From Hormiphora californensis (lineage: Eukaryota > Animalia > Ctenophora): a DNA stretch of 64,000 nucleotides. The stretch is taken from assembly GCA_020137815.1 (NCBI GenBank), contig CM035354.1, positions 1,116,001 to 1,180,000 of the forward strand. The letters are read 5' to 3'. Positions 39,529 through 63,133 of the stretch are shown piece after piece (position 1 is the stretch's first letter; each line of letters starts with the position of its first letter). Position numbers and translations under genes: made by a program. The notes under the pieces were generated by a model that was not told where the DNA came from, made no database searches, and was given only the letters and a program-made list of their open reading frames with translations.

Positions 39529-41361
39529 CTAATAGCCAACCAACGACAGCTTTGCTACATGATCCGTTTTCCTCTGCGTCGGTTTCAGATATCCCATGAA
39601 CTGAAGCTCTGAAATGCCCCGAATGAACCGGGCATGAATCTCACTAGTTAGTCTCTTGCTACCCAAAGATGAGCTATAGGACTGTATCCAATCGTGGAGG
39701 GATATCAGTCGACCATGTTCCTGAAACAACTCAAAGAGGTGACACAGATCAGGTTTTATCTCCACATCCTCGCCCTGTAGGTAGATGTGAGGTGAGGTTA
39801 GGGCACGGTGAATGCTAGCCCGACATCTCCCAACAAGCAGATTTCCCAATATCACGTGATCGGTCGCCCATATGATCTCGTGTAACGGCCATGTAGTTGG
39901 AGCTTTGATCATGCTCAAAAAGTCACTTATCCGAGAGGAGAACGTTAGCTGTTCCTCCTTACACCCCTCTCCGGGTTCCATCTTCTGGATTGTCTCTATC
40001 TCAGACCGCAGGACAAGAGTCAGCGCTTTTAGCATCTGTGGAACAGGCTCGGGAACCTCCTCACAAGCTGTAACCGCAGCAGTGAGCCGCTCTACAAAGG
40101 CATCTCGTTGTAGCATTGCAAAACACTTGAGTGCAACTTTGACTTCCTGAACCGTGTTGACTTGTCCACCGAGACACAGGGAGTACAACTCGAGGGGCTT
40201 GCTAACAAGTGCATTTCCAGGTAGATTCCTGATGAGAGAGTGCAGGACCCGGAATGTGTGAAAAAGAACACGATAGTTAGTGTCAAGGTCCTGTGACAGC
40301 TCCCTTATCATCCCCTCGTCCCCCTTTAGCAATTTACCGGCCCGGAATTTATCAGACACAACGAGACGTTCCACCTCACACTGAACGGAGGGAAGTTGTA
40401 GGAGTAGGGCTTTGTCAATGTCACTTAGAGGCTGTGTCTCCCGGGTTAGTTTTATAAGGGGTTGTGACATGCATTGATGGAGAAGGGCCACTCGGATAGT
40501 TTTCAGGACATCCTTAAGGCTGTAGTTAACCATACTAAACCTGCTGAGTAGCACTTCAAATGACCGGTACGAGAGCTTGAAAGGGAGGTCCGGGGAGAGG
40601 AGGGAGGATGTCAGGACACGCTCCAGCAGGAGAGTTGGTGAGATTACATCGGTAGGAGTGACGTTGAGAAGGGAGATGGAGGAACATGATAACCATTCAG
40701 TAGACAACTCCAGGCCGGTGGCCAGCCCGAATACAAAGAACAAGGTGAACCCAACCTCAGCCGCAGCGGTGTGACACAATTGGACGAGTGTGTCTGTTGT
40801 GGCGGGAGGGACTGCATCAAACCGGGGGAGGAACACGACCAATCCTGCTGAATCTTCCTTCAGATGCACCAATAGGTTCTTCAACAATAGCGTTCTTGTG
40901 AGAATCTTCTCCTCCGGTGAATTGGTTGTTAACAACTGACCAAAAATGCTCTTCATCAGATTTACAATGTCCTGTCCAGAGCTAGAATCCACGTTAACAG
41001 ATTTGATTTTATACTTCTCTCCAAGTATCCGTGATGAACTCTGATAAACACTGGTGAACTCCCTGAAATTTACACCTGTTTTTACCGTTAGAGTGGGGAC
41101 TCGGAGGAAATTAGACCGCTGCTTTGACATGTGTGAATCTACAAAACATGTCACGGCACCCACGACACTTTCTGTTACATCGCGGACAACCGACTGGACA
41201 GACGTCTCCAAACGAGACAGAGTGTTTTTATAAATCGTCTCTCGTTCCTGGCGATCTTCTGGTGACTCCTCTTGGTAGAGAGTAGGGAAGAGGGAGTCTT
41301 CTTTTAATTTGGAAGGTTTCACAACAAAACAACCCGTTGAAAGGGATGTAAAGTCTGCCAT
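39529..41361 (-). CDS. ORC3: Origin recognition complex subunit 3, intronless
   Basis: N-terminus SLSTGCFVVKP, FVFGLAT, PFKLS, and C-terminal winged helix GRLISLHDW...ARFIRGISELQFMGYLKPTQRKTDHVAKL, matching ORC3 termini. Confidence 0.93.
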   Translation of the reverse strand: MADFTSLSTGCFVVKPSKLKEDSLFPTLYQEESPEDRQERETIYKNTLSRLETSVQSVVRDVTESVVGAVTCFVDSHMSKQRSNFLRVPTLTVKTGVNFREFTSVYQSSSRILGEKYKIKSVNVDSSSGQDIVNLMKSIFGQLLTTNSPEEKILTRTLLLKNLLVHLKEDSAGLVVFLPRFDAVPPATTDTLVQLCHTAAAEVGFTLFFVFGLATGLELSTEWLSCSSISLLNVTPTDVISPTLLLERVLTSSLLSPDLPFKLSYRSFEVLLSRFSMVNYSLKDVLKTIRVALLHQCMSQPLIKLTRETQPLSDIDKALLLQLPSVQCEVERLVVSDKFRAGKLLKGDEGMIRELSQDLDTNYRVLFHTFRVLHSLIRNLPGNALVSKPLELYSLCLGGQVNTVQEVKVALKCFAMLQRDAFVERLTAAVTACEEVPEPVPQMLKALTLVLRSEIETIQKMEPGEGCKEEQLTFSSRISDFLSMIKAPTTWPLHEIIWATDHVILGNLLVGRCRASIHRALTSPHIYLQGEDVEIKPDLCHLFELFQEHGRLISLHDWIQSYSSSLGSKRLTSEIHARFIRGISELQFMGYLKPTQRKTDHVAKLSLVGY

Positions 41362-42103: not shown

Positions 42104-44678
42104 ATAAGCCTCTTCGGTCCTTTGAAACGAAAGCTGTTATAATCTTTTCCGATTGGATACGATAAACACTGCAATCCTCGGCACAGTTGACGTGAAGTCC
42201 CGGCTACCTTATCTCTATAAGAGAAAACGTTAGGTATCGTGTATTCAGAACGTTTCGATCGTTTTAAACATCATCATCACAAAATATCTATTATTCTGCT
42301 TTATAGCAACAACAATCGTGAGACTTCGCTAGACTCTAGCGGCTAGAGCCTAGGCCCTAGAATCCAAATTTTTTCCCAGTCCCGGGTCCTGAGCCACAAG
42401 AAATTATTAATTTGATAAGTAAATTTGATAATAACATATCCCTTCGTGGCATGAGGGTTTTATTTAGCCCTAATGTTTGTCTAGCCTCTAGGGGAAGTCA
42501 AAATAAATAAAATTTGACCTTGAAAAGTGTTTAAGAAAGGGCAGCGTGATCGATTTGGGCGCGATTATAATCTTGGTGCCTTGCAGCCTGTTTACAGGTG
42601 CGCGCTACCAAAAGAGTATACTTAGACCGACTTTTTTCAAACGGCTATAGCCATGGAACCACATGGCCGATTTGAGTAAACTAAACGGTATCAGTTAGAG
42701 AATCGATAGCCCTAACCGATAACCCCAAACCAAACCCTAACGGATAGCCCTAACCCGTCGCGCGCGCCAAAACTACGAATTGTTAGCAATGAAAGGCACC
42801 CAGATTTTAACGTTTTCCTCTCGATTTTAAATTTTGAGTTTTATTTTCAATTTTTTGACATTTTGAGATTTATCGCGCGCGCTCCGACGCGCAAAATATT
42901 AGCGCGCAAGTGAGAAAGCCACACTGCAAAATCGACGACATCGACGACATTTTTAATGAGCCTCGGCATCTTCCTCTGGCGGCGCCATGAACTATCGCCA
43001 GACCTGCTGGTGGCGTCAGACCCCCAGTCATCGGTGTCAAGTGCGGTCAGATCGCGTTGACGCCAGACAGAACACGAATAACCCGTCTGGCGCCACCGAG
43101 TCGGTGACCGACCCCATATGAGCGCACTGTCGTCGACAGTGCGCTCATATCAGAATCTCTATCTCATGAGATCTCATCAGGGCAATGACCATGGGCTGTG
43201 TGGCGGCGCCAGACCCCCATTTGCGACCCGACTATTATAATGCTTGGGTTTAGTACTCACTAAACGGTTATTCACTGTCAGAGCATTTGGACTGACCCTA
43301 TTCTCAGAACCTGAGAGCATGGGCCTGCAAGTGCAGGCTATCCAAGTTGGATTACAACATCATCTTGCCATTTATCACAAGGATGTCCCTTGTAATTTGG
43401 TGCCCTGTCTTTATATGAGGCATAAACTCTGGCCACTGGCACGTTATTTCAGATACCTTTCTCCCAGCGCGCCGCTGGGAGAAGGTAGCTGTAGTTTATC
43501 CGCCAGTGGCGGATAAACTGGTTTAAATCACGACGACGATCCCGAGGCGTAGCCGAGGGAGAGGCGGAGGGGTTTAAACCAATAACGTGCCATTGGTCAG
43601 AGTTTATGGGTTATATACCCTGCTTTAGTCGTTTGTTTCAAGTATTACACAATAACAAGAGAGAGAACACTAATGAAAACACACAAAGAGAACTGAGAAA
43701 CAGTCAAAAACATCTCTCAATTGAGTGTATAGTGTTTGGTAACAGTTACTAAGGAGAGAGAGAAAGAATTAACAAGATATGGGGCATGCCAGACATAACA
43801 CAGAGGAATTGAGATAGTGAGAAAGAAGGGGAGATAAAGAGAGAGTAATTGACGGAATGTGTTCTTTCTTTCTCTCCAATGTAGGGGAGATTCGCCTCAA
43901 ATGGGATACTTGGTCAAATGGGATATTGGGCTCCAGGGATTACTGTGGGATGTGCATGATTTTCTGACACAGGATGCTGTTCTGATATAATCTTACACCA
44001 TTCTTATAACGTTCAACAACTCATCTGAGAATTACAGTGCAAATAACACAGGGGTCCCCTTTGAAAAAAACGCAACTAGAAAGTTCAATCGAGCTCAGCT
44101 CGCTTTCTTATCTTTGTTGTGACTTGTATGCTAGATTTGACCGATCAATAGGTTAGTTTAAACAATTTTCATTCCACTCCTGCTATGAATTTAGTGATAA
44201 ATAACTATCTCATGACTTGATAACTTGATTTTACTTCATGCCTTGTTTTTGTTTAATGGGATGGTTTGCTGTTTGGCCAAATGGGGTATCCCATTTGACC
44301 AAATTTTTGGTATCTCATTTGACCAAAAATTTACTTTTCTTTAATTAGATTCGTAATGGCAGCGATTTCACGTCTAAAAAACTCGGAAAACCACTAGACA
44401 AAGCTGGGACACTGTCAGTATGAGGAAGGCCATCAAAGCTGTCAAGACAGGGGAATGTGGGTACCTCATGGCCTCGAAATTGTTCAACGTGCCCAAGAGC
44501 ACCCTCGAACGGAGAGTGAAAGGGAAGAATAAGTTTGCAGAGGGCGCCATGAAGATTCTGGGGAGCGGAACTACCATTTTTTCTGCAGATCTGGAACAGC
44601 AGTTGTGTGATCACTGATCACACAGGATCCTGCTACTGGAGGCGCATTTACGGGTGGGAAATTCACAACTGTGCTCCT

Positions 44679-45380
44679 CTAACACCGATGATGAGTCATA
44701 AGGGCCGATATGGATTTTGAGCGAGGTAATTGTACGGGGACCAATGCTCTGGTACCAAGACGGGTGTGCTCAGTAAACAGGAGACCCGTGCCGTTTGGAA
44801 CTACCTCATGAAGAACCTTCCAGACATGGATAATCATGTATCGCTCACGACGCCGCTGGAGGGACAAGATACCAAGATGTTGGAGCCGATCCCAGTACCC
44901 CATGCCGGAACAGCTCTCAATCCTACGTGTGAAGTGTCTTTGAGCCTCTTCAACCAGGGCGATATCAGACTTTTTCACCGGGCTCCATAATGGACAACAG
45001 TACTCCACCTGAGGCCTAATGATGGACTTCAGTAACGTTAGCATAGTATCATCGGATCTATCTCGAAACACACTAAGTGCCCAGCCACTCATCCGTCTAG
45101 CCTTGGCAGTAATGCTGCCTATGTGTTCTGACCAAGTGCAGTCTGCAGATACAAGGACCCCTAGATCTCTCACGGTGAAACTTGGTGATATTGTCTCGCC
45201 TCCGGGACCATTGTAAAGATAATTGTCAGTGGAGAAAGGAAGCTCCCTCAGGAGTTGGGTGGAGCGAAGTGTATAATTTATCACCTCAAACTTATCCTGA
45301 TGGAGTGACATATTGTTGTCTGAAGCCCAACGTCCAAATTCATTAAGACTCAGCTGCAGGTTATCTCTGTCGTTGAGTGA
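44679..45380 (-). pseudogene. Non-LTR retrotransposon RT C-terminal fragment (CR1/L2-like)
   Basis: VRDLGVLV, IRPQVEYCCPLWSP, SLQRRRERY; truncated on both sides. Confidence 0.85.
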
Positions 45381-45382
45381 CC

Positions 45383-46765
45383 TGAAAAGTTATTAAGAAA
45401 ACCTTGAAAAGTTTTTAAGAAAGAGCTGCGTGATCGATTTGGCATACGTTGCAGGCCCCTTATAATATAATATAAGGGGCCTGGAGGGAATACCGCGCTA
45501 GGGGGGAATACATAATCAATCATATCTCCGGTTCCAGATAAGGTACAGAAATCGTTTTGGTAGCGTTGGAAAGAGGAAGATAACAGCTTTCAAATGCAAC
45601 CGGTTTCAGGTCTCTATCTTATCAGGAACAGGAGATATGAACCAAACTCCGCAAAATCGAGTGCGGTAAAATCAAAATTTGAATGAAATTTTTAAAAAGG
45701 TGTCCCTGCAAGAATCTGTGACGTCACTTTTTGAAAACAACCCATCTTTCAACGGCTATTGCTCAGCCTCCTTAAGTCCAATTAACTTCTCTCAAAAACA
45801 GCAAGGTAGATAATCGTCAGATCTAACAACTGGTGAAAGAATAAAGTCAAACGGACTTCAGGAGCCAAAGTTATAAGCACCGCCGTTTTTTCGACCGCAA
45901 AGTTATCTTCGACCCAGCCGGGATCAGGCCAAACGCGCGCGCGGCATTCCCTCCAGTCCCCTCGTTGCGGGGGTGCGCGCATGAGGGGGCTGCAGCGCAT
46001 TCCAAGTGATCGATTGGCAAACGTTGCTGGCGCGGGATAAGGCAGCGCTTTTCAACGCGATCGATTATAAATTTTGAGTATACTCCATTTTTTTTCAACT
46101 GTTCACCCCCCAAAGTCGTGCGCGGAATTTTTTTGCGCGTCTATCACATGTTAACGTGTAGCGCGCGCAGCGTAAATTAAAATATCGCACGCGCACGAGT
46201 TGGGGGGTGAACAGTTGAATAAAAATGGACTTTATAGTCGAATTTTTTATTTAAGCGACAGGCCGCCGCGCATTCAAAGAGGTCGCGCGGCGTTGTATTT
46301 GCGCGTGATAATCGAGATCGAGTTCCTGGCAATCTTAAAACTTGAACCCAAAAGCGTTGGAAAGATAATTTCAAGACCTTTCCAACGCAACCAAGACCAA
46401 TTCTTTATCTCATCAGGAACGGGAGATATGAGAGAAAAGATTTCCCGAATTGTCACGCGCAAATACAACGCCGCGCGACTTCTTTGAATGCGCGGCGGCC
46501 TGTACGGTGGCAGATTCCGGCCAAGTGTTTTTTCAATCAAGTGAAATATTTTTGTTTGAAGTTTTATAAAAATTTTATTTCAAAATAAAAATAAACATGT
46601 CGTTAAAATATGGCCGGAATCTGCCACGCGGGTGGCAGATTCCGGCCAAGATTCTCAAAAAACCTTGGCCAGAATCTGCCACACGCGTGGCAGATCTGGC
46701 CAACCAACAAACTTGTTATATCAAAGCGAAAGCACTGTACCGAATTTTGATACGCTGAATCACGA
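45383..46765. mobile_element. Palindrome-rich DNA-transposon-like fragment
   Basis: Inverted repeats at 45451-45483, about 46068/46245 and about 46258/46503. The left end ccttgaaaag..gcgtgatcgatttgg is shared with 42518-42558. Confidence 0.55.
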
Positions 46766-48938: not shown

Positions 48939-49140
48939 TAGTGTGTAACTCTTGCAAATAGTGTTCCCTCTGTATTTCAGTAAGAACTGATCATTTACAC
49001 TCACTTTGAATGTAACATAGGAGTTAATAATAAATAACCTGCCAGTGGGAAATAATCTGCCGCTGGACTAGCTGTTTATTGACAGCGCGCCAGTGGGACT
49101 TCTCGCCACTGGCGGGTTATTTAAGTTAGCAGGGTATATA

Positions 49141-49807
49141 TGAGGCATAAACTCTGGCCACTGGCACGTTATTTCAGATACCTTTCTCCCAGCGCGCCGC
49201 TGGGAGAAGGTAGCTGTAGTTTATCCGCCAGTGGCGGATAAACTGGTTTAAATCACGACGACGATCCTGAGGCGTAGCCGAGGGAGAGGCGGAGGGGTTT
49301 AAACCAATAACGTGCCATTGGTCAGAGTTACGGGTTATATACCCTGCTTTAGTTGTTTGTTTCAAGTATTACACACTAACAAGAGAGAGAACACTAATCA
49401 AAACACACAAAGAGAACTGAGAAACAGTCAAAAACATCTCTCAATTGAGTGTATATTGTTTGGTAACAGTTACTAAGGAGAGAGAGAAAGAAATAACAAG
49501 ATATGGGGCATGCCAGACATAACACAGAGGAATTGAGATAGTGAAACAAAAGGGGAGATAAAGAGAGAGAAATTGACGGAATGTGTTGTTTCTTTCTCTC
49601 CAATGCAGTGTGTAACTCTTGCAAACAGTGTTCCCTCTGTATTTCAGTAAGAACTGATCATTTACACACACTTTGAATGTAACATAGGAGTTAATAATAA
49701 ACAGCCAGCCAGTGGGAAATAATCTGCCGCTGGACTGGCTGTATATTGAGAGCGCGCCAGTGGGACTTCTCGCCGCTGGCGGGTTATTTAAGTTAGCAGG
49801 GTATATA
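49141..49807 (+). mobile_element. Repeat family A, copy 2 (head-to-tail with copy 1)
   Basis: Junction agcagggtatata|tgaggcataaac. Confidence 0.9.
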
Positions 49808-49966: not shown

Positions 49967-52900
49967 TTAGTTCCTCTCGCAGATGTATGCGGTGAACTTG
50001 TTGTTTGTCTTGCCACTTGTCTTTTTATTGGTCATACACCTGGAGGAGGGAAGTGTGGGTTAGAACTTTATATACCCTGCTAACTTAAATAACCCGCCAG
50101 TGGCGAGAAGTCCCACTGGCGCGCTGTCAATAAACAGCTAGTCCAGCGGCAGATTATTTCCCACTGGCAGGTTATTTATTATTAACTCCTATGTTACATT
50201 CAAAGTGAGTGTAAATGATCAGTTCTTACTGAAATACAGAGGGAACACTATTTGCAAGAGTTACACACTACATTGGAGAGAAAGAAAGAACACATTCCGT
50301 CAATTACTCTCTCTTTATCTCCCCTTCTTTCTCACTATCTCAATTCCTCTGTGTTATGTCTGGCATGCCCCATATCTTGTTAATTCTTTCTCTCTCTCCT
50401 TAGTAACTGTTACCAAACACTATACACTCAATTGAGAGATGTTTTTGACTGTTTCTCAGTTCTCTTTGTGTGTTTTCATTAGTGTTCTCTCTCTTGTTAT
50501 TGTGTAATACTTGAAACAAACGACTAAAGCAGGGTATATAACCCATAAACTCTGACCAATGGCACGTTATTGGTTTAAACCCCTCCGCCTCTCCCTCGGC
50601 TACGCCTCGGGATCGTCGTCGTGATTTAAACCAGTTTATCCGCCACTGGCGGATAAACTACAGCTACCTTCTCCCAGCGGCGCGCTGGGAGAAAGGTATC
50701 TGAAATAACGTGCCAGTGGCCAGAGTTTATGCCTCATGTAACTAGAAGAAAGTGGGAAAATATGGCGTAAAGATTTCGTAACGAAGTTACCCCTCCCGCG
50801 TGAAGGTCGGGGTTATTTCGCAACCAACGTAAAGATGGGGTTAGAATGGGAACTGACCGAATCAGGAAATACTGGTCCCTGATTGGCTGATAACCAGTCA
50901 CGTGACCTAAATAACTAGTTCTGATTGGTTGTTTACTTCAAGTGTCGGTGGTTCACTCACTTGTTCTTGTTCTTGCAGGAGATTCCAGCACATTTGGTGT
51001 CGGCTTCACACGCCTTAACAGCTGCCTCCATGCTCTGCATGCCGCTGAGCTTCTTCTTCAACTTGTAGCTCTCAACAGTTTTCCAGGTGCAAACCTCCTC
51101 GGGCTCATCGGTCTTCTCATCATCACCATCATCACCATCATCACCATCATCACCATCATCACCATCATCACCATCATCACCATCATCACTATCATCATCA
51201 GCCCTGGATCCTGGAGTGAGGGAAGGAAGGGGTTAGTGGTAGGTTTATAATAAGGGACATCAACTATAAGGTCCATTGTACAGCTACTTGTCTCATAAAA
51301 TACTGCACTGGGCTAAAGGTACAGTCAGTGCGCCTGACAAACAGCTCTAACCCCGTACTTACCAGAGATCATAGGGTAATGAGCGTAGTTGGCAATGGCA
51401 CAGGTGTTCAGGCTGTTTCCGGCGGTACCCCTAGCCATCTTGATGTGTCCTTTGTCTCCCCAGTTTCCTCCCCAGCTGTTTCGGCAGTTGAAGTAGGAAT
51501 CACCATTGGCGTGGATACCGTATCCAACAACATCGACAGCGTGGTTAACGGAGGAGCAGCTGGTAGCGGAGTAGACACCATCCTGAATGGGTGGGAGGTC
51601 TGTGAGTATACTAATGAGTATACACATTACACATGGTGTGAGAGGTGGGAGGTCTGTGAGTATACTAATGAGTATACATGGTGTGAGAAGTAAAGTGTGT
51701 ATCACACTCACTGAGTATAATACATGATAGATGATGGTGAGCCGTATGGCGGCGCCAGACCCCAATTTGATTCTCAACAGTGCGCTCAGATGGGGTCGCG
51801 GCGCCATACAGATTGTCTCTAATACCTTGTAAGAGTAGAAAGAGTTGATGACACCAATAGCGACGGAGAGGACACCAATGGTATCATCAGCAATAGCGGC
51901 AACAAGGGCATCATCAGACTTGCTGAGGTACTTGGTTCCTGAGATGGTGAATCCGGCGAGACCGTTCTTGGAGGCATCCTTCTGGCAAGTAGAATCTGAA
52001 AATGAGTAATATATAATATTATCATCTACGACTATGAAATAGCTCGCTTCGAAATAATTCTAATAGTAGCTGTCAGATCGTTGGTCTAACAGAATAGTAG
52101 AGAGCTAGAGAAAGTGTATTATAATAATTACCCTTGGCGGTGTAAGCATAGTCGGCAGTCTCAGCAAGGAGATTTCCGTTGTTCTTGGACCAGGTATAAC
52201 AAGAAGCGGGCCATCCTCCGTTGCAACCGTCCCTGGATCCCTCGTAGACACAGTCAAGATACTGCTGCTCGGACAGACTCTTCTTGGTAGACTGGAAGGT
52301 AGAAGGGAGGGTAAGTAATTGTTGTTTAGCTGGGAGCAATTTTTCACCATATATTGAGAGTGGTTCTGAGATTTAATCAGGGTTTAGAGGAGCCGGGAGG
52401 GAGCCGGGATAATAAAAACTTACATATCCCCGGTTGACTTGGTACTCCAGAGGTCCAACGGCTCCAAAGGCCCAGCAAGATCCACAGGATCCCTGGTTCT
52501 TGGGATCGGGGAGCACATCAGCGTAGTCAACATTATCAGCTCGTTTCACAAGAGATCGCCTGACCAGGGGCTCGACATCCCTCCTGGCGAGCTCGAGAGA
52601 AGAAGCGTTCAGTCCGGTGTAGGCTTTCTTCTCATCATCGGTCATAGTTGCGAACTGGTTGTATCCGGCATGCCAGTGGTCACCATCATTAGCGTTGTGT
52701 TCCTCAATTTCATCACAATTTCTGAGAGGGAGAGAGGGTTTAATAGTGAGACCGTGGAGTGAGAGAGGGAGGGTTTAGTGAGACCCCGTGGACAGTATCA
52801 ATGTAGCCTAATGTAAATTAAATGGTTAAACAATAAAGTGCAATAGTCAGATCAACACATTATCTGTCAGTACCTAAATCTGTAATAGCTGGGCGGTTGC

Positions 52901-53074
52901 AACTTACTTGCTGAAAGCTGCAAAATGGGCAGCTTGGTCCTCGGAAGAGGCCTGAAGGAAGTTCTCCTGGCCATTCTCAGAGACCAGCTTCTGGAACATT
53001 TTAGCTTTTTCTTCCTGAGTCAGGAGAGCCGAGGCAGCTCCGACCAGACAAGCCAGCACAATCAGGATCTTCAT
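49967..53074 (-). CDS. Cathepsin L-like (papain C1A) protease 1 with Gly-Asp linker and C-terminal Cys-rich domain
   Basis: Signal MKILIVLACLVGAASA; I29-like pro-region (NQFATMTDDE); QGSCGSCWAF, GCNGG, NHAV, RNSWG; about 7 exons. Confidence 0.92.
50069..50737 (-). mobile_element. Repeat family A, copy 3, inverted, in the last intron of cathepsin 1
   Basis: Reverse complement closely matches copy 1. Confidence 0.9.
51745..51809. mobile_element. Very short palindromic MITE-like repeat
   Basis: gtatggcggcgcc...cagtgcgctcagatggggtcgcggcgccatac; related copies at about 55719-55769 and 42977-43230. Confidence 0.6.
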
Positions 53075-53727
53075 GTCTTGAAGGGGGAGAGAGGGTTGGG
53101 TCAAATTGAAGATAGATATAACATGCTAGATCTAGAGAGTTTGGGAATTGATGATGTCGCATCATCAGAGAAAATAGGGATGGGCGGAGGGGTGGTTACT
53201 CGATCAGAAAGGGGGCGTTCTACCAAGGTTGTCATCTCGCAAGAGGAGCCAGGTAACAACTAAAGTGATAAAACTGACAGTGACCGGCCCCCCCCTTTTG
53301 TACCTGTTGTCGAGTTCCCGGAACCACACTACAAAGGGCAGCTCTTCGTTCTGTGTAGACAATGATGCCACAATGTAGACAATGTCCCGCCCACAATGGG
53401 CTGAATGGACGCTTTATCATCCAGGGGGTGGGGGCGTCTCTTTGTATATCTTTAACAAGCTAGTGCTCCTCTTTGTGCTCTTTGTTAGCTTTTAGAGGGG
53501 CGTCTGTGAAAACGTCAAACGACACTTCCAGGGTATTGGAGTAGACAGAGTTGAGGTAGAAAAGATGTGTCTCTTTGTATGAGAGAAGGAGAGAGGGAAA
53601 GAGAGAGAAGGAGAGAGGACAGAGAGGGAGGCAGAGAGGTGGAGGAAGAATAGAAATGGCAGCTAAACAAAGAAAACAAAAGCATTTTCAGCAGTAAAAG
53701 ATAGGTGGTCTGTAGTTGGTAACAATT

Positions 53728-56700
53728 TTACAATCGTTTGCATTGGTAAGCAGTAAACTTCAGTTTCGAGACAGATCCGTTCTTGCTGTTCAACTGGCAC
53801 CTATAACACAGAGGGGGCGGTTAGCAAGATGTAGTGATATGGCAGTTACTATTATAGCCTCAACTAACAGAGAGATGACGGAACAGACGATCTCCCATCT
53901 AGTAAGGAGACACACTTACTTTCCCTTGTCGTTACAGGAGACTCCCTTGCACTTTGCATTCTCCTGACACAGCTTCTTAGCCTCATCAATATCATAGACC
54001 AACTTGGAGAGGTTTCCTTTCATTCTCCTTTGGGTCATGGTATTCCAGCTACACGAGTCAGTATCATCACCCCCATCGTCACATTCAGAATCACTGGAAC
54101 CTGGGGGATTAATTGGTCACTAATTGATAATTAATTGGTAACTAATTAGCAACTAATTGGTAACTAATTAGCAACTAATTAGTAACTAATTGGTTACTTG
54201 GATAAGTGCCGGAAGAGAGAGGTGACCGTCAGGAATTGAGATGTAGAATTTGGGCTCACTATTTGGAGGGTCACACATGAAATACAGCCCCCCCCCACCC
54301 CCGAAATACACTCATACCTGTGACCCTTGGGTAGTGAGCATAGTTGGAGATAGCACATGTGCTCAGACTTGACTTGAGACCCCTCTTCATCTTGATATAA
54401 CCCTCGTCACCCCACGCGTCTCCCCAACTGTTTCGAACCAGGAAGTACCCAATTTTACCGGAGGTACCATATCCCACAATGTTGACCGCGTGGTTGACAC
54501 TGCTGCAGCTCTTGCCAGAGTAAACTCCTGACTATTAACGAGATGGAGATGATGTGAGATGTTAGATGGGATGTGAGATGTGATGTTAGATAGGATACAT
54601 CAGAAAGGGTGTTAGATGAGATGTGAGATGTTAGATAGGGTGCTAAATAGGGTGTTAGATGAGATGTGAGATGTTAGATAGGATGTCAGAAAGGGTGTCA
54701 GATGAGATGTGAGATGTTAGATAGGGTGCTAAATAGGGTGTTAGATAAGATGTTAGATAGGGTGCTAAATAGGGTGTTAGATAAGATGTTAGATAGGGTG
54801 CTAAATAGGGTGTTAGATAAGATGTTAGATAGGGTGCTAAATAGGGCGTTAGATAAGATGTTAGATGGGGTGTTAGATGAGATGTGAGATGTGAGATGTT
54901 AGATGTTAGATGTTCAGGCCAACTTGGAACCTTGTAGAGGGGGGGGGGAAGTAACTTATCTATACCTTGTAATTGTAGAAGTCGTTGACAACGCCAATAG
55001 CAACGGAGAGAACACCAATCGATTTATCAGCAACGGCCTCAGTCACTGCACTGTCAGTCTTGGGGCTAATGTAAGCGGTACCAGTGATCTTGAAACCAGA
55101 AATGGCATTCTTTACCTTTTTCACACACTTACCATCTGGAAATGGGAGGTGATTTACAGAAATTAGCTTTACATTATTCACGATATAATTTAGTTGATGT
55201 ATTTTGGTTACGCTGGCAAGGGAGGGGTAACTTCAATAGTATTTTACACTCACCAACTTTGTTGTAGGGCAAATCAGCGGTTGAGGCAGCATAATTCCCG
55301 TTGTTCTTTGACCAAGTATAGCACTCGGCGGGCCATCCTCCGTTGCAGCCGTCCCTAGAACCCTCATACACGCAATTCAGGTAGAGCTGCTCAGCCAGGT
55401 TCTTGTGACACTGAAATACAGATTTATTAATAGATGTAATGGTGTACTGGTGTAGGGCGGGGTATGGGTGAAAGAGAGGGGACAGCTAGATTCTTGTGAC
55501 ACTGAAATACAGATTTATTAATAGATGTAATGGTGTACTGGTGTAGGGCGGGGTATGGGTGAAAGAGAGGGGACAGCTAGATTCTTGTGACACTGAAATA
55601 TGTAATGGTGCAGTACTGGTGTAGGGGGGTGTTACAGTAGTGGTGAAAGAGAGGGGGACAGCTAGATTCTTGTGACACTGAAATACAGATAATAGGTGCG
55701 ATGGTAATGGTGTAGGCTGTATGGCGGCGCCATACCCCAGTGCGCTCAGATGGGGTCGCGGCGCAAGACAGGGTGTATGATTTGATTTTCAAACTAAAAG
55801 GTCTACAATACAGGGACACAAACACGCGTAGATATAGACACACATAATATAGGTATAAAGATAAATTTCCCTGTACAATAGAGCCAGATAGCGGAGGGCT
55901 GTAGACAGCGCTTACACCTATCAAGAGAAATATTAAATCAATTAATAGAATATATGATATTTATAGTATTATCATAGTTATTAAATAGTAATTAATTTTA
56001 TTGAGATTTGAGCATGAGCAGCCGCACGATGATAATGATCAACATGAGTAATAATGTTATGATGGTGCTTCTGCTATAATTGGAATATTTCCAAGACCAA
56101 GAGAGAGTAAATAACACGAGAGCGCTATTGGCTAATGGTGGAGAGATCACATGTTCAACACAAGCCAATAATTAGAGAGCAGTTAGGAACTGAAAGAATA
56201 GTTAGACAATAGGGAGAGAGAGAGAGCGAGAGGGAGAGAGAGAGAGAGAGAGGGAGAGAGAGAGAGAGAGAGAGAGAAAGAACAGAACTGACTGAGAGAG
56301 ACAGATGGGAACAATAGGAGAGATACTTGACAGAATACATAAATGAGGTATAAACTCTGGCCACTGGCGCGTTATTTCAGATAACTTTCTCCCAGCGCGC
56401 CGCTGGGAGAAGTTAGCTGAAGTTTATCCGCCGCTGGCGGATAAACTGGTTTAAATCACGACGACGATCCCGAGGCGGAGCCGAGGGAGAGGCGGAGGGG
56501 TTTAAACCTATAACGTGCCAGTGGTCAGAGTTTATAGGTTATATACCCTGCTTTAGTTGTTTATTTCAAGTATTACACACCAACAAGAGAGAGAACACTA
56601 ATCAAAACACTCAAAGAGGACTGAGAAATAGTTAAAACACCTCACAATTGAGTGTACACTGTTTGGTAACAGTTACTAAGCGGTTGCTAAGGAAAGAGAG

Positions 56701-59700
56701 TGAAAGAAATAGCCTGATAAGGGGCATGTCACACATAACACAGAGGAAGAGATAGTGAGACAAAAGGGGAGATAAAGAGAGAGTAATTTACGGAATGTGT
56801 CCTTTCTTTCTCTCCAATGTAGTGTGTAAGTGTTGCACATAGTGTTCCCTCTGTATTTTAGTAAGAACTGATCATTTACACACACTTTGAATGTTCAAAA
56901 TAAATAACCTGCCAGTGGGAAATAATCTGCCGCTGGACTGGCTGTTTATTGAGAGCGCGCTAGTGGGACTGGCGGGTTATTTAAGTTAGCAGGGTATATA
57001 AACGGTTAACGGGAGATCGCGCCAAAATGGAGTAGAGAGCACGAGTTAAATGCTGAAGTGAAACACTTTCGATATTATGAGAACGATAAAAGAAGACCCA
57101 TTTAGTGACTACCTAAGTGACACCCTGATCAGTCCCAGAACTATCCCAAAGATGTCTTTTTAATTGAGAAGAGAAAATTATGGGATCAGAAGTAGCTCTC
57201 AGGGAAAGCGGAAGAAGGTTCCAGAGCTTATGGGCACGGTAGAAGAAGGAATTTTCAAATATGTTAACTCTAGGAACCTCGGACGTCATCAGGTGGAGTG
57301 AATCCATATTGGATTGGGCCCTAGTGTTTATTACTATCTGGGAGGGGGTAAAGAACGAGAGATAAGGAGGGAGATCGATTGGGGAGGTACCATATATTAT
57401 TTTGTGCAGAAGCATTAAATCATTAAGCTCGAATTTATTACGAATAGGAGGTATGTTGAGGTTGGCAAGCTTGGAAAAATATTCTACCTCAGAGTAGCTA
57501 GAATTTTCTTCATCTAGTATCCATTTTATCGCTCGCTTCTGGAGTTTTTCTAGCTTTTCAATCCCAGCTGTACTAGTTGGTCTCCAGATTTGTGAGCAAT
57601 GTTCTAGTAAGGACCGCACAAGAGACAAGTATAGGGTCTTCCGTTCAGGTGGTGTTCTAGCTAATTTACTGTGCCTCTTTAATAACCCTAACTTTTGCCT
57701 CTGGGAAGCAAGAATAGAATTTCTGTGCTCCTCATAACTCAATCGGTTACTAATAAGAACGCCGAGGTCTTTCTCAGAGGAAACTGAAACAATTAATTCC
57801 CCTGCAAGAGTGTAAGAATGCGCTATTTCACGTCTATTTAGATTAAGCCTTATTAATTTACATTTAGCTGGGTGGAAGGAGATGCGGTTTTCTATAGACC
57901 ATTTGTGGAGGTTGTCGATATCGGATTGTAGGCTATCTGAGGGAGAGTGTACACTTTTCCATATTTTGAGATCATCAGCATATAGCCTACTATTGGTACC
58001 CTGATTGATTACACTAGTGATATCATTAATAAATAAGACAAAGAGAAGTGGTCCTAAAATGGATCCTTGAGGCACCCCAGAATGTACTGGTGCCCATTCA
58101 GAGGATATACTATCTATAACTACCCGCTGTTTTCTATCCCTAAGATATTCTATAATGAAACTTAACATTTTCCCATTAATATTGTAATGATCTCGGAGTT
58201 TATCTATAATTACATCATGATTAACACTATCAAAGGCCTTAGCAAAATCAAAATATACGATATCAGTCTGAAGATGGTTATTTATATTGTAGGCGAGGCT
58301 GTCAGTGAATTCAATCATCTGGGTACAGCATGATTTATTAGGTACAAAGCCATGTTGATGAGGAGAAATTTTATCTTGGCAAATAAGGAAGAGCTTGTCC
58401 CTAATAAGTCTTTCAAATACCTTCATTACTAGGCAGGTTAGAGATATAGGCCGATAATTTTTAACTAGAGACTTGTCCCCTTTCTTGTGGACTGGCACTA
58501 CATTTGCCTCTTTCCATTCTGATGGCAAATAACTGGAATGGTATGAGAGATTATAGATGTATGCAAGAGGGCGAGCTAGGACTGAAGAACATTTTTTAAG
58601 AACAATACCGTCTATATTGTCAGGACCAGTTGCTTTGGAGGGGTTTATATCCTTGAGGATTTTTTGAACATCCTCCTCTCTAAATAGAAGATTATTACAG
58701 TCATTTACGTGGTTCCTGTTAGGATCGATTACTGTATTGTAACTACTAATATCAGAAAATTGAGCACAGAAGAAGTTGTTGAACATGTTACATTTTTCAG
58801 AAGTTCTACAGGAAGAGTTGTTATTGTCACTAACAGAATCGGGAATTCTAGTGCTCCCTACTAAAGATTTAAGATACTTGTAGAACTTTTTAGTTATAGT
58901 ATTACTGTCATTCATTTCCTCGTCTGTATAGTAACTAGCTCTTTTGTCTTCTACAGAGAGTTTGTAATTGTCAGCCAGGGATACGTATTCGTCGTTTAAG
59001 GTGATATCGTCAGGATGCTTAAGATGAAGCTTGCGGGCTCTTTCTACAGATTTTCGGAGAGCTTTTAGGTCTTCATCGAACCAGGGTGGACGAGAGGAGG
59101 GTTTAACAGTGACCATAGGAACGTACCTTTTTAGGATAATGTCTAGTTTTGATTTGAGACAAGAGACACATTCTCGAGCATTAAGGCCCACAAAAAGAGC
59201 ATTCCAATTGCATGAGTTCAGATCTTGGTTAATCCGATCCCAGTTTGCTTTCTTATATGAAAATTTTCTAAACTTGGCAGTATTTTTCATGGAGACTCCT
59301 AAATTGATGGTACATTTAATTGTGCTATGATCAGATTTAACTAATAGATCCTGTTTAACTTTAACTTGATTATATATGCTAGGTCTATTTGTAAGAATGA
59401 GGTCTAGGATATTTCCTGAACGATGCGTAGGAGAGTTTATCAGGGATACCATACCAAGGTTACTTACGATTTCAAGGAAACTAGATTGTCTCCCAACATT
59501 GGATGAAGGCAAATCCCAGTTTTTTATAGAGCTAAGATTGAGGTCGCCTATTATTGTAAGGGAATTATATCGCTTCGAGAGATAGTTTAATAGGATACAG
59601 AGAGACAGTGCTGTTAGAAAGATTATAGTTTTTAGACATGAACGAGTGGTTTGTGGGGGGTGTGGTTGTGGATCATCCGTGCGGCTACTCATTTCCTCAA

Positions 59701-62600
59701 TAGAGTGAGGAAATGGTTGAGATCGGTGCTTCTTCGAGAGAGAGTGTACTTTGATAGATTGGAAGCATCCGACTCTGAATCTATAGAGTTGTAAATCGAT
59801 CATTATCGATTTTAAGTAAGCTTAACTAAACTTGTCGGTATGACTGGGGAGATTTCACTAGACTCCCTATTGAACTATAATATGCGGATTAAGAACTAGC
59901 TGGCTCTATTATACGGACTCAAAAGATACTTAAAAATATTGACTATATGCCTCTTTCCAAGAGCACTGGGGTGGAGCATACCTCGTCCAAACAATGAACG
60001 ATTAACACAGCACCCACAGTGCTCCAAGAAATCGTCAAAGCACTCAAGCCAGCCAACACCCATTTCACCATTACTCCCGAAATAGTCATCAATGACTCCC
60101 CTCATTGTTTGGTTAAATCTGATAATACGGGGGGCTAACTCAGGACGGTCCAGTCTCGGTAGAACGCTTAGACAGTTTATTGTTGCACGCGGAAAACGGT
60201 AACTAAGTAAATCAATGAGACCCAAATACATATGACATATATCTAAGATGCCATTAGGAGAAGCAATGTCATTGGTGCCCACTAGTAAACTGATGGAATC
60301 AATGTCCAAATCTCGAGTCCAAGATCCGCACACTCTAATCAAGTCAGGGATAGTGGCGCCCCCCATTGCATGAACTTGAGCTTGGTGTTGGTTGAAGTTC
60401 AGCTTGAGACCCCTGACCATGGAGTCGCCGATGATGAGGTGGCGTGTGGGGTGGTGTGGCACAGCCTGAGTTCGAGAAGGGTGCAAGACAGGAAGCCCGG
60501 AAGAGACGGCCGGTGGGGTCGCAGAGGTTGGTGGAGTGGTAGAGGAGTTAGGTGGGGGACCAGAAACCAATGGAGCGATGTCTAAGACCGGTGGGGTGTT
60601 GGAGTTGAGAGGTGGTGATTGGGTTTCAGAGACCACCGGTGCGATTTCAGAGACTGGTTGGGCGGTGGAGGTGAGAGGTGGGATTGGGGGTTCAGACAAT
60701 TCAGAGACCAGTTGATCATGATGTGGTACTGGGGATGGAGGTGAGGATTGTAGTGCCTCAGAGACCGGTGGGTCGGTCAGTGGTGAAGTGTGGGAGACAA
60801 TAGTTATGTCTGGGAGGTAGGGAGGCGGGGAGGACATTTCAGGCTGGTTTGAGGAAACAGACTGTAAAGTAGGTACAGGAGTTTCGGGTAATGTTGGCGG
60901 AGTCGGAGCCGAGGATTGATGCGATCGGATGGGGCGAGGCGTGGAGTTAAGCGGTGAGTGATTATCCGGTACCTTGACTCTTCGGAATGACAGAGCCACC
61001 CTCTCACCTGACTGACCTGGGTACTTTGGGCACCCATGCCAAAGTTGATCTTGGCACTCTGGCATAAACATGACCCCGTCACCATTGTACAGGGTGAGAC
61101 TACCCTCAAAACTGCTCTCTGCCCTGTATCTGCCATCTAGAAAGTCAAGGAAACGTGTTGCCCCAAGAGATATCGTAAAAATGGGGGAAGACGGGTCATT
61201 CATATCCTCCCTATCCTGGTGGAGGGGTAGATTCTCATCACCGTTCATGTAGCGTATCATAAGGCACCCATTAAAATTTGTTTTAAAGGTCCTGTTTACT
61301 CGCTGTAGGAGGGCTGACATGGGGACGGGAAAGGGGGAGGGCCTAAGAGAGATGTTGCCCCAGCCGTATGTAACCCCAGTCTCAGAATACCAGACGAACC
61401 TATTGCCTCTAGATACCCGGTGAGGAAGGTTCAGCTCACCCAATAATGACTCAGCTGAGAAAGAGTCTAGAAAACTGGAATAAAGCACTGCAAGGCCGTT
61501 TTTAATTGTCCGGGTGGGGATGGGGGGAGGGGTTTTATTTAGAGCCCTGGTAACAAGTAGTTCAAGGTCATCCCTACTCACGACCACAGAGTCTGTAGTA
61601 GATATCTCGAGCAGCGTCCTCTCAAGGTTGTCGTGCCTTATCGTTATCTCCCCAGTCATCCTCGAGACCATTCTATTTCATTGGGACCTAGAGGCCAAGC
61701 CTCAAATTAATTTGTTTAAAGTAGTGTTGAAAAGTTTGAAGGGTGTAGGGGTAAAAGAGAGGGGGACAGCTAGGTTCTTGTGGCACTGAAATATGTAATG
61801 GTGCAGCACTGGTGTAGGGGGGTGTTACAGTAGTGGTGAAAGAGAGGGGGACAGCTAGGTTCTTGTGGCACTGAAATATGTAATGGTGCAGCACTGGTGT
61901 AGGGGGGTGTTACAGTAGTGGTGAAAGAGAGGGGGACAGCTAGGTTCTTGTGGCACTGAAATACAGATAAAAGATGTGTTAATGGGGGTGATGGTGTGAT
62001 CTGCTAATTGAGGAACTATTTTAGAGTGAGAGCAGAGAGAGAGAGGTAGCTAGAGTCTAGATATCTGAGATGAGAGAGGGGGGCAGCTAGAATCTAGTGT
62101 CACTAAGTTACAACACCACTCACATCAACATTAGCAACATCTTTGTTAACTTGGTACTCCAAAGCAGCAACCGCACCAAAAGTCCAGCACGAACCACATC
62201 CACCCTGGTTCTTCGGAGCTGGAATACTGCCCCTATAGTCAGCACTATCGGCCCTTTTCACCAAACTCCTCTCCTCCATCTCCACCTCTTCCTCAACCTC
62301 CATCATCACAAGACTGGAGACATTGAGTCCGGTATAAGCAGCCCTCTCTGTTTCTGTCATGATAGAGAACTCATTAAAATCAGCCTGCCATTCCTCTCCA
62401 TCCTCAGCGTTGTGAACCTCAATAAACTCTGCTGTCTCTTTAAAGGCGGAAAAGTGGGCTCTCTGGTCAGCAGGGGATGCCTTCAGGATGGGCTCGTGGT
62501 GGTATTTGGAAACTAGCTCCCGGTATTTCTTAGCCAAGTCACCGGGACTCATGGCGGAGATAACGCCAATAATGGCACATAACAGGAACAGAGACTTCAT
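53728..62600 (-). CDS. Cathepsin L-like (papain C1A) protease 2 with C-terminal Cys-rich domain; LINE in intron 1
   Basis: Signal MKSLFLLCAIIGVISA; NEFSIMTETE; QGGCGSCWTF; GCNGG; NHAV; RNSWG; last exon CQLNSKNGSVSKLKFTAYQCKRL*. Confidence 0.9.
54540..54912. repeat. Intronic minisatellite (gttagat/agggtgctaaat units)
   Basis: Degenerate ~33-bp tandem units. Confidence 0.85.
56344..57000 (+). mobile_element. Repeat family A, copy 4, inside the LINE 3' UTR
   Basis: Same termini and internal hairpins as the other copies; more diverged. Confidence 0.88.
57113..59803 (-). CDS. LINE ORF2: partial APE endonuclease plus reverse transcriptase
   Basis: GDLN, LDL and SDH (C-terminal half of APE); YRPISL, QHGF, DFAKAFD, GVPQGSILGPLLF, YADD, KDLGV. 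Confidence 0.95.
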   Translation of the reverse strand: MIDLQLYRFRVGCFQSIKVHSLSKKHRSQPFPHSIEEMSSRTDDPQPHPPQTTRSCLKTIIFLTALSLCILLNYLSKRYNSLTIIGDLNLSSIKNWDLPSSNVGRQSSFLEIVSNLGMVSLINSPTHRSGNILDLILTNRPSIYNQVKVKQDLLVKSDHSTIKCTINLGVSMKNTAKFRKFSYKKANWDRINQDLNSCNWNALFVGLNARECVSCLKSKLDIILKRYVPMVTVKPSSRPPWFDEDLKALRKSVERARKLHLKHPDDITLNDEYVSLADNYKLSVEDKRASYYTDEEMNDSNTITKKFYKYLKSLVGSTRIPDSVSDNNNSSCRTSEKCNMFNNFFCAQFSDISSYNTVIDPNRNHVNDCNNLLFREEDVQKILKDINPSKATGPDNIDGIVLKKCSSVLARPLAYIYNLSYHSSYLPSEWKEANVVPVHKKGDKSLVKNYRPISLTCLVMKVFERLIRDKLFLICQDKISPHQHGFVPNKSCCTQMIEFTDSLAYNINNHLQTDIVYFDFAKAFDSVNHDVIIDKLRDHYNINGKMLSFIIEYLRDRKQRVVIDSISSEWAPVHSGVPQGSILGPLLFVLFINDITSVINQGTNSRLYADDLKIWKSVHSPSDSLQSDIDNLHKWSIENRISFHPAKCKLIRLNLNRREIAHSYTLAGELIVSVSSEKDLGVLISNRLSYEEHRNSILASQRQKLGLLKRHSKLARTPPERKTLYLSLVRSLLEHCSQIWRPTSTAGIEKLEKLQKRAIKWILDEENSSYSEVEYFSKLANLNIPPIRNKFELNDLMLLHKIIYGTSPIDLPPYLSFFTPSQIVINTRAQSNMDSLHLMTSEVPRVNIFENSFFYRAHKLWNLLPLSLRATSDPIIFSSQLKRHLWDSSGTDQGVT
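59896..61671 (-). CDS. LINE ORF1: AlkB-like 2OG-Fe(II) dioxygenase, Pro/Ser/Thr linker, SGNH hydrolase fold
   Basis: FNGCLMIRY..LHQD..IFTISLGATR..WHG..RVALSFR (HxD/H/RxxxxxR); IIGDS, GGAT, VGTND, MLHP. Confidence 0.9.
   Translation of the reverse strand: MVSRMTGEITIRHDNLERTLLEISTTDSVVVSRDDLELLVTRALNKTPPPIPTRTIKNGLAVLYSSFLDSFSAESLLGELNLPHRVSRGNRFVWYSETGVTYGWGNISLRPSPFPVPMSALLQRVNRTFKTNFNGCLMIRYMNGDENLPLHQDREDMNDPSSPIFTISLGATRFLDFLDGRYRAESSFEGSLTLYNGDGVMFMPECQDQLWHGCPKYPGQSGERVALSFRRVKVPDNHSPLNSTPRPIRSHQSSAPTPPTLPETPVPTLQSVSSNQPEMSSPPPYLPDITIVSHTSPLTDPPVSEALQSSPPSPVPHHDQLVSELSEPPIPPLTSTAQPVSEIAPVVSETQSPPLNSNTPPVLDIAPLVSGPPPNSSTTPPTSATPPAVSSGLPVLHPSRTQAVPHHPTRHLIIGDSMVRGLKLNFNQHQAQVHAMGGATIPDLIRVCGSWTRDLDIDSISLLVGTNDIASPNGILDICHMYLGLIDLLSYRFPRATINCLSVLPRLDRPELAPRIIRFNQTMRGVIDDYFGSNGEMGVGWLECFDDFLEHCGCCVNRSLFGRGMLHPSALGKRHIVNIFKYLLSPYNRAS
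61701..61740 (-). other. Retrotransposed spliced-leader sequence
   Basis: Minus strand TTCAAACTTTTCAACACTACTTTAAACAAATTAATTTGAG matches my recollection of the ctenophore SL; there is no downstream GT donor, so it is not an SL RNA gene. Confidence 0.85.
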
Positions 62601-63133
62601 CTCAGCAGCAGTAGTAGTAGTCTTGTTGTTTCAGATTGTGAATTGTGTCCGGGGAGGTCCGTTTTAAACTGTCCTACACCTGGCTACATCTGCCACCTGA
62701 AAGAGAGACAATAGCCGGGCTAATGGAGGGAGAAAGAGCTCGCCTGGGAGTGCTAATTACTGATCCAATTAAAACTTACCTGGTAGCATACAATAGAAAT
62801 GGCATCAAAGTGCGAGCTGTTTCCATTTTGTGTCCTCCTCTTTCTTTCTACAATAGTATAACAGGTCCCGTACTAGGTCTTGTAGTTTTATCCATGACTG
62901 AACCTACATAATGTTAATAACATGTTACAATAATATTATGAAACACAGAACAAAACAGCTGCAAACGTGCAAAATATGATGATGATGAATATAAACAGCT
63001 CTAAGTCTATCTTTTCTCGCTCTCTCTGACTTGTTATTTCTCACAACTATAATAATCTTCTCAAACGGACAAATTTAACTCTCCCACTCTCTCTCAGTTT
63101 TCTCGAGGGGGCGAGGACGGGGTAGTACAGTTG

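Follow-up and report, generated by a model that had tools for sequence, protein, structure and literature searches.

We analysed a stretch of 64,000 nucleotides from the ctenophore Hormiphora californensis (assembly GCA_020137815.1, contig CM035354.1, positions 1,116,001 to 1,180,000 of the forward strand), hereafter called the window, with positions counted from its first letter. It harbors a CR1-type long interspersed nuclear element (LINE) whose first open reading frame (ORF1) encodes an ALKBH2/3-like AlkB domain fused to an SGNH esterase domain. Both parts are known on their own; their combination is apparently a new type of LINE ORF1, real, conserved and undescribed, and recurs in a family of divergent proteins with nearly invariant catalytic residues. 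The original prediction, made from the DNA letters alone, had described the protein as an intact AlkB-type demethylase fused to an SGNH fold.

The AlkB-SGNH protein and its family

ORF1 is one stop-free frame with an ATG at 61671 and a TAG at 59896-59898. Its parts are as follows (aa, amino acids; pLDDT, predicted local distance difference test).

59896..61671, minus strand: ORF1, 591 aa, with short helical N-terminus, AlkB domain, linker and SGNH domain (stop-free frame, Pfam, model)
60967..61521, minus strand: ALKBH2/3-like Fe(II)/2-oxoglutarate dioxygenase domain, aa 51-235 (Pfam, PDB sequence match, fold, conservation)
60448..60966, minus strand: Pro/Ser/Thr-rich linker, aa 236-408 (composition; low pLDDT, predicted disordered)
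59899..60447, minus strand: SGNH esterase domain, aa 409-591 (Pfam, fold, family conservation)

Residues 91-230 match the Pfam domain 2OG-FeII_Oxy_2 with an E-value of 1.3e-13 and 52 bits, above the cut-off of 31.2. The iron ligands His151 and Asp153 of the HQD motif (61213-61221) and His212 (61036-61038) are all present at the positions predicted for them, as is the Arg-x5-Arg pair for 2-oxoglutarate in RVALSFR, formed by Arg224 (61000-61002) and Arg230 (60982-60984). Tyr102, Trp104 and Glu155 are found at the base-pocket positions, and the F1 hairpin is shortened. By sequence, the closest solved structure is human ALKBH2, followed by ALKBH3. An AlphaFold model built with 87 relatives in the alignment (mean pLDDT 76) consists of two confident domains joined by a disordered linker, preceded by two low-confidence helices at aa 2-45. 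The modelled residues 51-234 match ALKBH3 (Z 22.6, root-mean-square deviation 2.1 Å, 180 residues) and ALKBH2 (Z 22.1, 2.4 Å, 185 residues) in what amounts to a tie. The HxD...H and Arg-x5-Arg motifs, the double-stranded beta-helix fold and a hidden Markov model (HMM) score above cut-off together place the domain in the AlkB family. The original prediction had located it at about 60975-61450; the domain is confirmed, and its start has to be moved upstream of 61450, as the fold begins near aa 51. The best viral fold matches of the model include polyproteins of Pinela virus and of unclassified Picornavirales and Riboviria; these model-based matches to Pinela virus and Picornavirales are a possible lead toward an RNA-virus link of the AlkB domain.

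The predicted Pro/Ser/Thr linker between the two domains is borne out by its composition (25% Pro, 17% Ser, 10% Thr). For the esterase, residues 429-574 match Lipase_GDSL_2 with an E-value of 6.3e-5 and 24 bits, under the cut-off of 32.9, and the modelled residues 407-589 match SGNH hydrolases with a Z of 20.8. Ser417, Gly438, Asn467 and His567 are kept and Gly564 stands at the position of the triad Asp, in agreement with the SGNH domain without this Asp that had been proposed. Likewise, ORF1 lies inside the target-site duplication and 92 nt before the reverse transcriptase (RT) frame, as predicted. With an SGNH domain related to that of ZfL2-1 and a position ahead of an ORF2 of the apurinic/apyrimidinic endonuclease (APE)-RT type, it fits an esterase-type LINE ORF1 in these two respects.

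A search of 1.84 billion representative proteins gave 1750 matches at E ≤0.001, the best 150 of which were analysed with profiles built from those matches. Both domains were detected in 107 of these 150, AlkB alone in 38 and SGNH alone in five; several of the single-domain members fall inside two-domain tree groups and may be fragments. An independent Pfam check found both domains in nine of 14 hand-picked proteins, six of which scored above both cut-offs. Exclusion of 18 two-domain proteins with a truncated domain left 89 near-complete ones. His151, Asp153, Arg224 and Arg230 are conserved in all 89 and His212 in 88, the SGNH residues Ser, Gly, Asn and His in 87-89, and the triad Asp in 65. 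The original prediction had made its case depend on the AlkB segment being present in other copies of the family and free of neutral decay, and these counts show the first, together with conserved catalytic residues. The AlkB domains have a median pairwise identity of 26% and the SGNH domains one of 23%, and the linkers span 4-148 aa between HMM bounds. AlkB and SGNH distances are correlated over 90 proteins (Mantel r 0.46, reached by 0 of 999 permutations), which indicates joint descent and not function, because relatives share their history. The nine closest within-cluster pairs hold too few changes for a comparison of the domains.

Nine family members (P0148, P0153, P0173, P0176, P0180, P0213, P0220, P0280 and P0281) carry two tandem AlkB domains. 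Two quick trees were made, both without eukaryotic host ALKBH2/3 or viral rows. In the one of 129 rows, the N-terminal copies of P0148, P0153 and P0176 are sister to their C-terminal copies, and one AlkB-SGNH subgroup is mixed with free-standing AlkB proteins; in the one of 54 rows (37 two-domain, 17 hand-chosen free-standing), the two-domain proteins fall on one side with a support of 76. When 20 ORF1-type or long proteins were looked up, NCBI names were obtained for two clusters, both of them Mnemiopsis leidyi hypothetical proteins: a 90% cluster with four models on three chromosome-sized contigs, and KAL5265523.1. Ctenophora is also the commonest phylum among ESM Atlas clusters with the AlkB-SGNH layout, of which few members are labelled. 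Two other proteins, P0228 and P0266, combine a superfamily 1 helicase, an ALKBH2/3-like domain and DUF4326, one of them with a weak NADAR match.

Further copies of the element are seen in sequencing runs. In run X2, summed contig depth, which is not a copy number, is 443-998 over ORF1 and ORF2 compared to 72-264 in flanking host bins and is level across the two frames; one X2 contig reaches from the end of the AlkB domain through linker and SGNH domain into the start of ORF2. Run X15, from a second organism, has separate contigs on the C-terminal half of the AlkB domain (52 of 326 letters differ, without gaps), the SGNH domain and the RT, and the ORF1 N-terminus is uncovered there at 80% likeness. 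Decayed copies exist too, as some X6 contigs have deletions in ORF1. None of the 21 sequencing runs listed was of RNA, a result without bearing on expression. Eighteen ORF1 differences, the best-supported of 594 rows, comprise 11 synonymous (24.5% expected) and seven non-synonymous changes, only one of the 18 lying within the AlkB domain; being a selected list, they carry little weight.

The AlkB-SGNH unit is directly linked to an endonuclease or RT in three lineages only: the window LINE and the predicted gene models P0280 and P0274. P0280 is a single record of 1443 aa with the order AlkB, AlkB, SGNH, endonuclease, RT, and its RT region is 40% identical to the RT of the window; P0274, from Mnemiopsis, combines AlkB with partial SGNH and endonuclease domains. 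For several other family members, the longest underlying contigs measure 5.9-6.9 kb, close to the length of a complete element, which is circumstantial. No fused proteins of 1324-3780 aa were found, itself weak evidence, and none of 120 ORF2 relatives has AlkB or SGNH in frame. Two metagenome loci among 129 pattern matches were rejected, both lying off-frame in a gene that by eye is bacterial outer-membrane receptor-like. The best SGNH match of the family profile in the PDB is 4c1b, the ORF1 esterase of the LINE ZfL2-1 (E 2e-21). As SGNH domains are known from Penelope-like and RTE/RTEX elements as well (PMC3905857; papers are cited by PubMed Central number, each for the part of its text available to us), some family members may sit in other retroelements.

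Possible substrates and role of the AlkB-like domain

In the PDB, the family profile matches ALKBH3 and ALKBH2 at E-values of about 1e-28 to 1e-25 and E. coli AlkB at about 1e-10, and neither ALKBH5 nor FTO is among the 60 of 65 profile matches listed. The base pocket is largely kept (Tyr in 84, the aromatic residue in 88 and Glu in 85 of 89), and in the window protein it aligns with Tyr122, Phe124 and Glu175 of ALKBH2, which help to hold the methylated base of 1-methyladenine (m1A) or 3-methylcytosine (m3C) (PMC12295762). ALKBH2 and ALKBH3 demethylate both m1A and m3C (PMC2965238). The original prediction had also named N6-methyladenine (m6A) as a substrate. This part is not supported by profile ranks and fold, in which the domain groups with ALKBH2/3 and is not nearest to an m6A eraser (residues 51-234 reach a Z of 16.3 with FTO and 15.6 with ALKBH5, against 22.6 with ALKBH3).

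By analogy with known AlkB enzymes, we give about even chances to a role in which the enzyme strips m1A/m3C-type methyl groups off the RNA of its own element within the ribonucleoprotein and thereby allows a long template to be copied by the RT. LINE ORF1 proteins coat their own RNA, and m1A and m3C stall reverse transcriptases. The ORF1 protein would thus coat its own mRNA, and the AlkB domain may double as its folded RNA-contacting part, since esterase ORF1s lack an RNA recognition motif. With Fe(II) and 2-oxoglutarate bound, the AlkB domain would oxidise the methyl group of a base lodged in the pocket of Tyr102, Trp104 and Glu155. Its shortened F1 hairpin would keep it from probing duplex DNA as ALKBH2 does, so that single-stranded RNA or cDNA would remain as targets. 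Once the pairing face is free of methyl groups, the RT could copy the 6-kb template, while the esterase would retain the membrane-binding role proposed for ZfL2-1. Plant-virus AlkB proteins, which repair m1A and m3C and prefer RNA (PMC2553587), serve as the model for this mechanism.

Several observations weigh against it. The segment of the F1 hairpin, with 31 aa in the window ORF1 and a family median of 34, falls about 9-12 aa short of the 43 aa in free-standing relatives (n=17). A Pro-Arg motif that includes the Arg110 equivalent is present in three of 89 family members but in 14 of 18 free-standing proteins, and the equivalent of Asn159 is Asn in 13 of 89, being mostly Ser or Thr, against 17 of 18. 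We take Asn159, Tyr161, His236 and Arg248 to be ALKBH2 numbers. The free-standing set was hand-picked from AlkB-only matches; four of its members are named AlkB proteins, one of them from Pseudomonadales and one clustering with an Actinomycetota protein. In the literature, deletion of F1 abolished 3-methylcytosine repair in ABH2 and ABH3, the F1-deleted ABH2 still turning over 2-oxoglutarate without demethylation (PMC2965238), and R110A reduces ABH2 activity (PMC12295762). Shortening of F1 and the losses at Arg110 and Asn159 therefore indicate that the substrate may have changed; taken together with the kept catalytic and pocket residues, they point to a strongly constrained enzyme core under a remodelled lid. 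The claim of an intact demethylase thus holds for the catalytic core and fails for the F1 hairpin and the Arg110 equivalent, reduced or lost family-wide. The closest sequence and fold match and the base pocket are those of the ALKBH2/3 subfamily, the F1 hairpin and the Arg110 equivalent are not, and we therefore call the domain ALKBH2/3-like without filing it as a subfamily member. Moreover, a link to an RT or endonuclease is seen in only three lineages, and for the other hundred or so proteins no locus with AlkB-SGNH beside an RT or endonuclease was found in viral contigs or in the prokaryote genomes scanned. Finally, most LINEs to our knowledge copy long RNAs without any AlkB, and the need for repair is therefore not obvious.

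The reduced lid bears most directly on a changed substrate, an alternative that we hold to be rather unlikely: the domain could be an iron oxygenase acting on a protein partner, a tRNA or another base adduct, or mainly an RNA-binding fold. In support of it, the family as a whole has lost the F1 hairpin and the equivalents of Arg110 and Asn159, F1-deleted ABH2 turns over 2-oxoglutarate without demethylating, and Repbase esterase ORF1s reportedly had no structural RNA-binding domain (PMC3905857). However, the Tyr, aromatic and Glu residues of the pocket are as strictly kept as in free-standing relatives, and five near-invariant catalytic residues would be needless for pure RNA binding. Similarly doubtful is counter-defence, in which the enzyme would erase a host-written mark (m1A, m3C, m6A or a DNA methyl group) on transposon RNA or new DNA copies and so escape silencing or sequestration. 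Its retention through a deep radiation, the tandem AlkB domains in nine scanned proteins and the remodelled lid resemble an arms race; orchid Gypsy elements bear an m6A eraser of demonstrated activity, and control of transposons by m6A has been discussed (PMC9289625), and ALKBH2, ALKBH3 and AlkB are reported to oxidise 5-methylcytosine in vitro (PMC6582317). Against this, the family groups with ALKBH2/3 and not ALKBH5/FTO and keeps the m1A/m3C pocket Glu in 85 of 89, and we came across no evidence that a host enzyme writes such marks on the transposons of ctenophores.

Clearance of alkyl lesions from single-stranded target DNA or first-strand cDNA at integration, with DNA and not RNA as the substrate, appears improbable: the single-stranded DNA stage is short, the host probably has repair enzymes of its own, and the AlkB of RNA viruses prefers RNA (PMC2553587). 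Damage elsewhere in the window copy, namely the endonuclease deletion and a transposon insertion, would suit a chance capture of a host ALKBH piece that is decaying in this copy alone. Yet such a capture is hardly credible and is refuted by the layout common to 107 of 150 proteins, the catalytic residues kept in 88-89 of 89 and the Mnemiopsis cluster with its four models on three chromosome-sized contigs; the level X2 depth over ORF1 and ORF2 and the AlkB, SGNH and RT pieces in the second organism also argue against it.

Removal of methyl groups from the element's RNA remains our preferred role. A wider scenario, which we offer as speculative, involves host defence: in an old, phylum-wide ctenophore LINE radiation, an AlkB of remodelled specificity, doubled in some lineages, would have replaced the RNA-binding part of ORF1 and would erase a host methyl mark on transposon RNA. 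If true, this ORF1 type would be one not yet described, and it would point to a defence by RNA methylation in one of the animal groups that branched off earliest.

Borders, ORF2 and surroundings of the element

The remaining parts of the element are listed below (UTR, untranslated region; MITE, miniature inverted-repeat transposable element).

55778..61739, minus strand: whole CR1-type LINE copy, 5962 bp (target duplication and repeat borders)
61740..61747, no strand: target-site duplication, 5′ copy, 8 bp (direct repeat; a marine-metagenome contig departs from the window at 61740)
55770..55777, no strand: target-site duplication, 3′ copy, 8 bp (direct repeat, behind a short AAATC-like tail)
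61672..61739, minus strand: 5′ UTR, 68 nt (sequence)
59804..59895, minus strand: spacer between ORF1 and ORF2, 92 nt (sequence; RNA fold ordinary, with nothing unusual found at z -1.25)
57113..59803, minus strand: ORF2, 896 aa, RT intact (YADD), most of the endonuclease gone (Pfam, comparison with the relative P0002)
55778..57112, minus strand: 3′ UTR, broken up by a MITE-like repeat
56343..57017, no strand: MITE-like high-copy insertion in the 3′ UTR, missing from other LINE copies

Homology to a host intron repeat stops at 61742 and the next high-copy repeat starts at 55771. These borders, with the 8-bp direct repeat exactly there, place the LINE at 55778-61739. The repeat occurs three times within the 64-kb window, and 0.85% of random border pairs (n=2000) match at 8 or more letters. 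A host repeat motif at 61742/55709 was rejected as the target duplication, as it occurs eight times. In the 5′ UTR, a two-codon upstream frame (Met-Lys-stop, 61673-61681) ends one base ahead of the ORF1 ATG. The first 40 nt of the LINE (61701-61740) show huge contig coverage in runs X2, X6 and X15, with bin depths of 55,000-76,000 and loose ends at 61701, which suggests a 5′ motif common to many elements or a non-autonomous partner.

ORF2 starts with an ATG at 59801-59803 and matches RVT_1 (E 6.3e-28), so that the RT frame reported by the original prediction stands; overlooked there was an in-frame internal deletion at about 59581/59582 that removes most of the endonuclease, with at least 181 codons lost. 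P0002, which is 90% identical to ORF2 and has endonuclease matches in Pfam, aligns only from its residue 182 onward, the window ORF2 keeps an endonuclease remnant without an ETW or NPGP motif, and X2 contigs extend beyond the deletion junction from both sides. With most of its endonuclease deleted, the window copy cannot transpose on its own. The RT frame, the endonuclease (here a remnant), the target duplication and the 3′ tail identify an APE-type LINE, and the RT resembles CR1 entries in the supplement of PMC3708506 by eye, not by tree. In 97 of 121 ORF2 relatives (P0002-P0121 and P0280), an NPGP motif preceded by a hydrophobic stretch lies just before the endonuclease; it lacks the D(V/I)E of viral 2A peptides and is deleted in the window copy. 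2A-like motifs have been described at this site of ORF2 (PMC3708506).

The LINE is inserted, on the same (minus) strand, in an intron of a papain-family cysteine protease gene, an exon of which with Peptidase_C1 and I29 domains lies at 62106-62630 (Pfam), with later exon frames below 55485. Papain-family protease genes are arranged in tandem at 51300-62630, and their introns contain 85-91 bp repeats that duplicate the splice acceptor and the start of the next exon. Copies 87-89% identical to the MITE-like repeat begin at 43412, 49136 and 50067, giving four copies of about 0.66 kb (43412-43884, 49136-49807, 50067-50740 and 56343-57017) that are extremely abundant in sequencing runs, and X2 contigs bypass the insertion at a depth of 293-524. 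A GC-rich short high-copy repeat at 55717-55771, adjoining the 3′ target duplication, recurs at 51778-51811. Elsewhere in the window, we observed the 3′ remnant of another, distant LINE RT that lacks ORF1 (44682-45389) and long single-frame host genes for ORC3 (39532-41361) and an animal haem peroxidase (11312-13387).

Relation to known systems

Among LINE proteins, ORF1 varies most and is the least understood. As of 2013, esterase ORF1s were reported never to occur with a folded nucleic-acid-binding domain (PMC3905857). Here, about 100 divergent proteins pair the esterase with an enzyme of well-known and easily assayed chemistry. A standing question thereby becomes testable, namely whether retroelement RNA is methylated, through damage or host action, to a degree that limits retrotransposition and favours an element with its own eraser. 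Natural AlkB variants without the F1 hairpin, some of them in tandem, are also available from the family, and counts of ctenophore “ALKBH” genes may be too high because of these transposon proteins, entered at NCBI as hypothetical.

Our search of the full-text literature, with Repbase, Dfam, subscription journals and most supplements outside its scope, gave no precedent for AlkB in a LINE ORF1, in agreement with the view that AlkB is not a standard module there. The word AlkB is absent from the available text of the ORF1 survey PMC4120745 and of the esterase paper PMC3905857, and the available parts of PMC4738411, PMC12477816 and PMC12859917 likewise hold no precedent for the AlkB-SGNH layout. 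The novelty suggested earlier therefore stands for LINE ORF1 within the literature searched but not for AlkB in retrotransposons as such, given an orchid Gypsy precedent that the original prediction did not know (PMC9289625).

The closest relative in layout is ZfL2-1 (4c1b), with the type IV ORF1 of CR1/L2/RTEX LINEs, in which a C-terminal SGNH domain with Ser, Gly, Asn and His is likewise followed by an endonuclease-RT ORF2 (PMC3905857, PMC4120745). There, according to these papers, a coiled coil precedes the esterase and no structural RNA-binding domain is present, whereas the window family has one or two AlkB domains at this place and lacks the triad Asp in the window copy and 24 of 89 relatives. 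Gain of a nucleic-acid-processing enzyme domain by a LINE ORF1 is also known from NADAR in Tx1 LINEs of oysters, a different enzyme family and LINE clade, in an account whose available text does not mention AlkB (PMC12477816). Plant RNA viruses (Flexiviridae and others) provide another case of a mobile RNA genome bringing its own AlkB (PMC2553587), and viral polyprotein AlkB domains match the ORF1 model by fold; the plant-virus domain, however, lies within the viral replicase without SGNH or LINE context, and the best solved matches of our family are ALKBH2/3. With human ALKBH2 and ALKBH3 and their prokaryotic relatives the family has in common the fold, the metal and 2-oxoglutarate ligands and the Tyr/aromatic/Glu pocket, but it differs from ALKBH2 and ALKBH3 by a shorter F1, by Arg110 and Asn159 equivalents that are mostly gone and by its fusion to an esterase inside a transposon. 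Finally, Ty3/Gypsy elements of Phalaenopsis are likewise retrotransposons that retain an AlkB-family dioxygenase through replication; they are long terminal repeat (LTR) elements with a recently captured, separate frame for an ALKBH5-like m6A eraser of demonstrated activity (PMC9289625). In contrast, the window family is non-LTR, carries its AlkB fused within ORF1, represents a deep radiation and is ALKBH2/3-like by sequence and fold.

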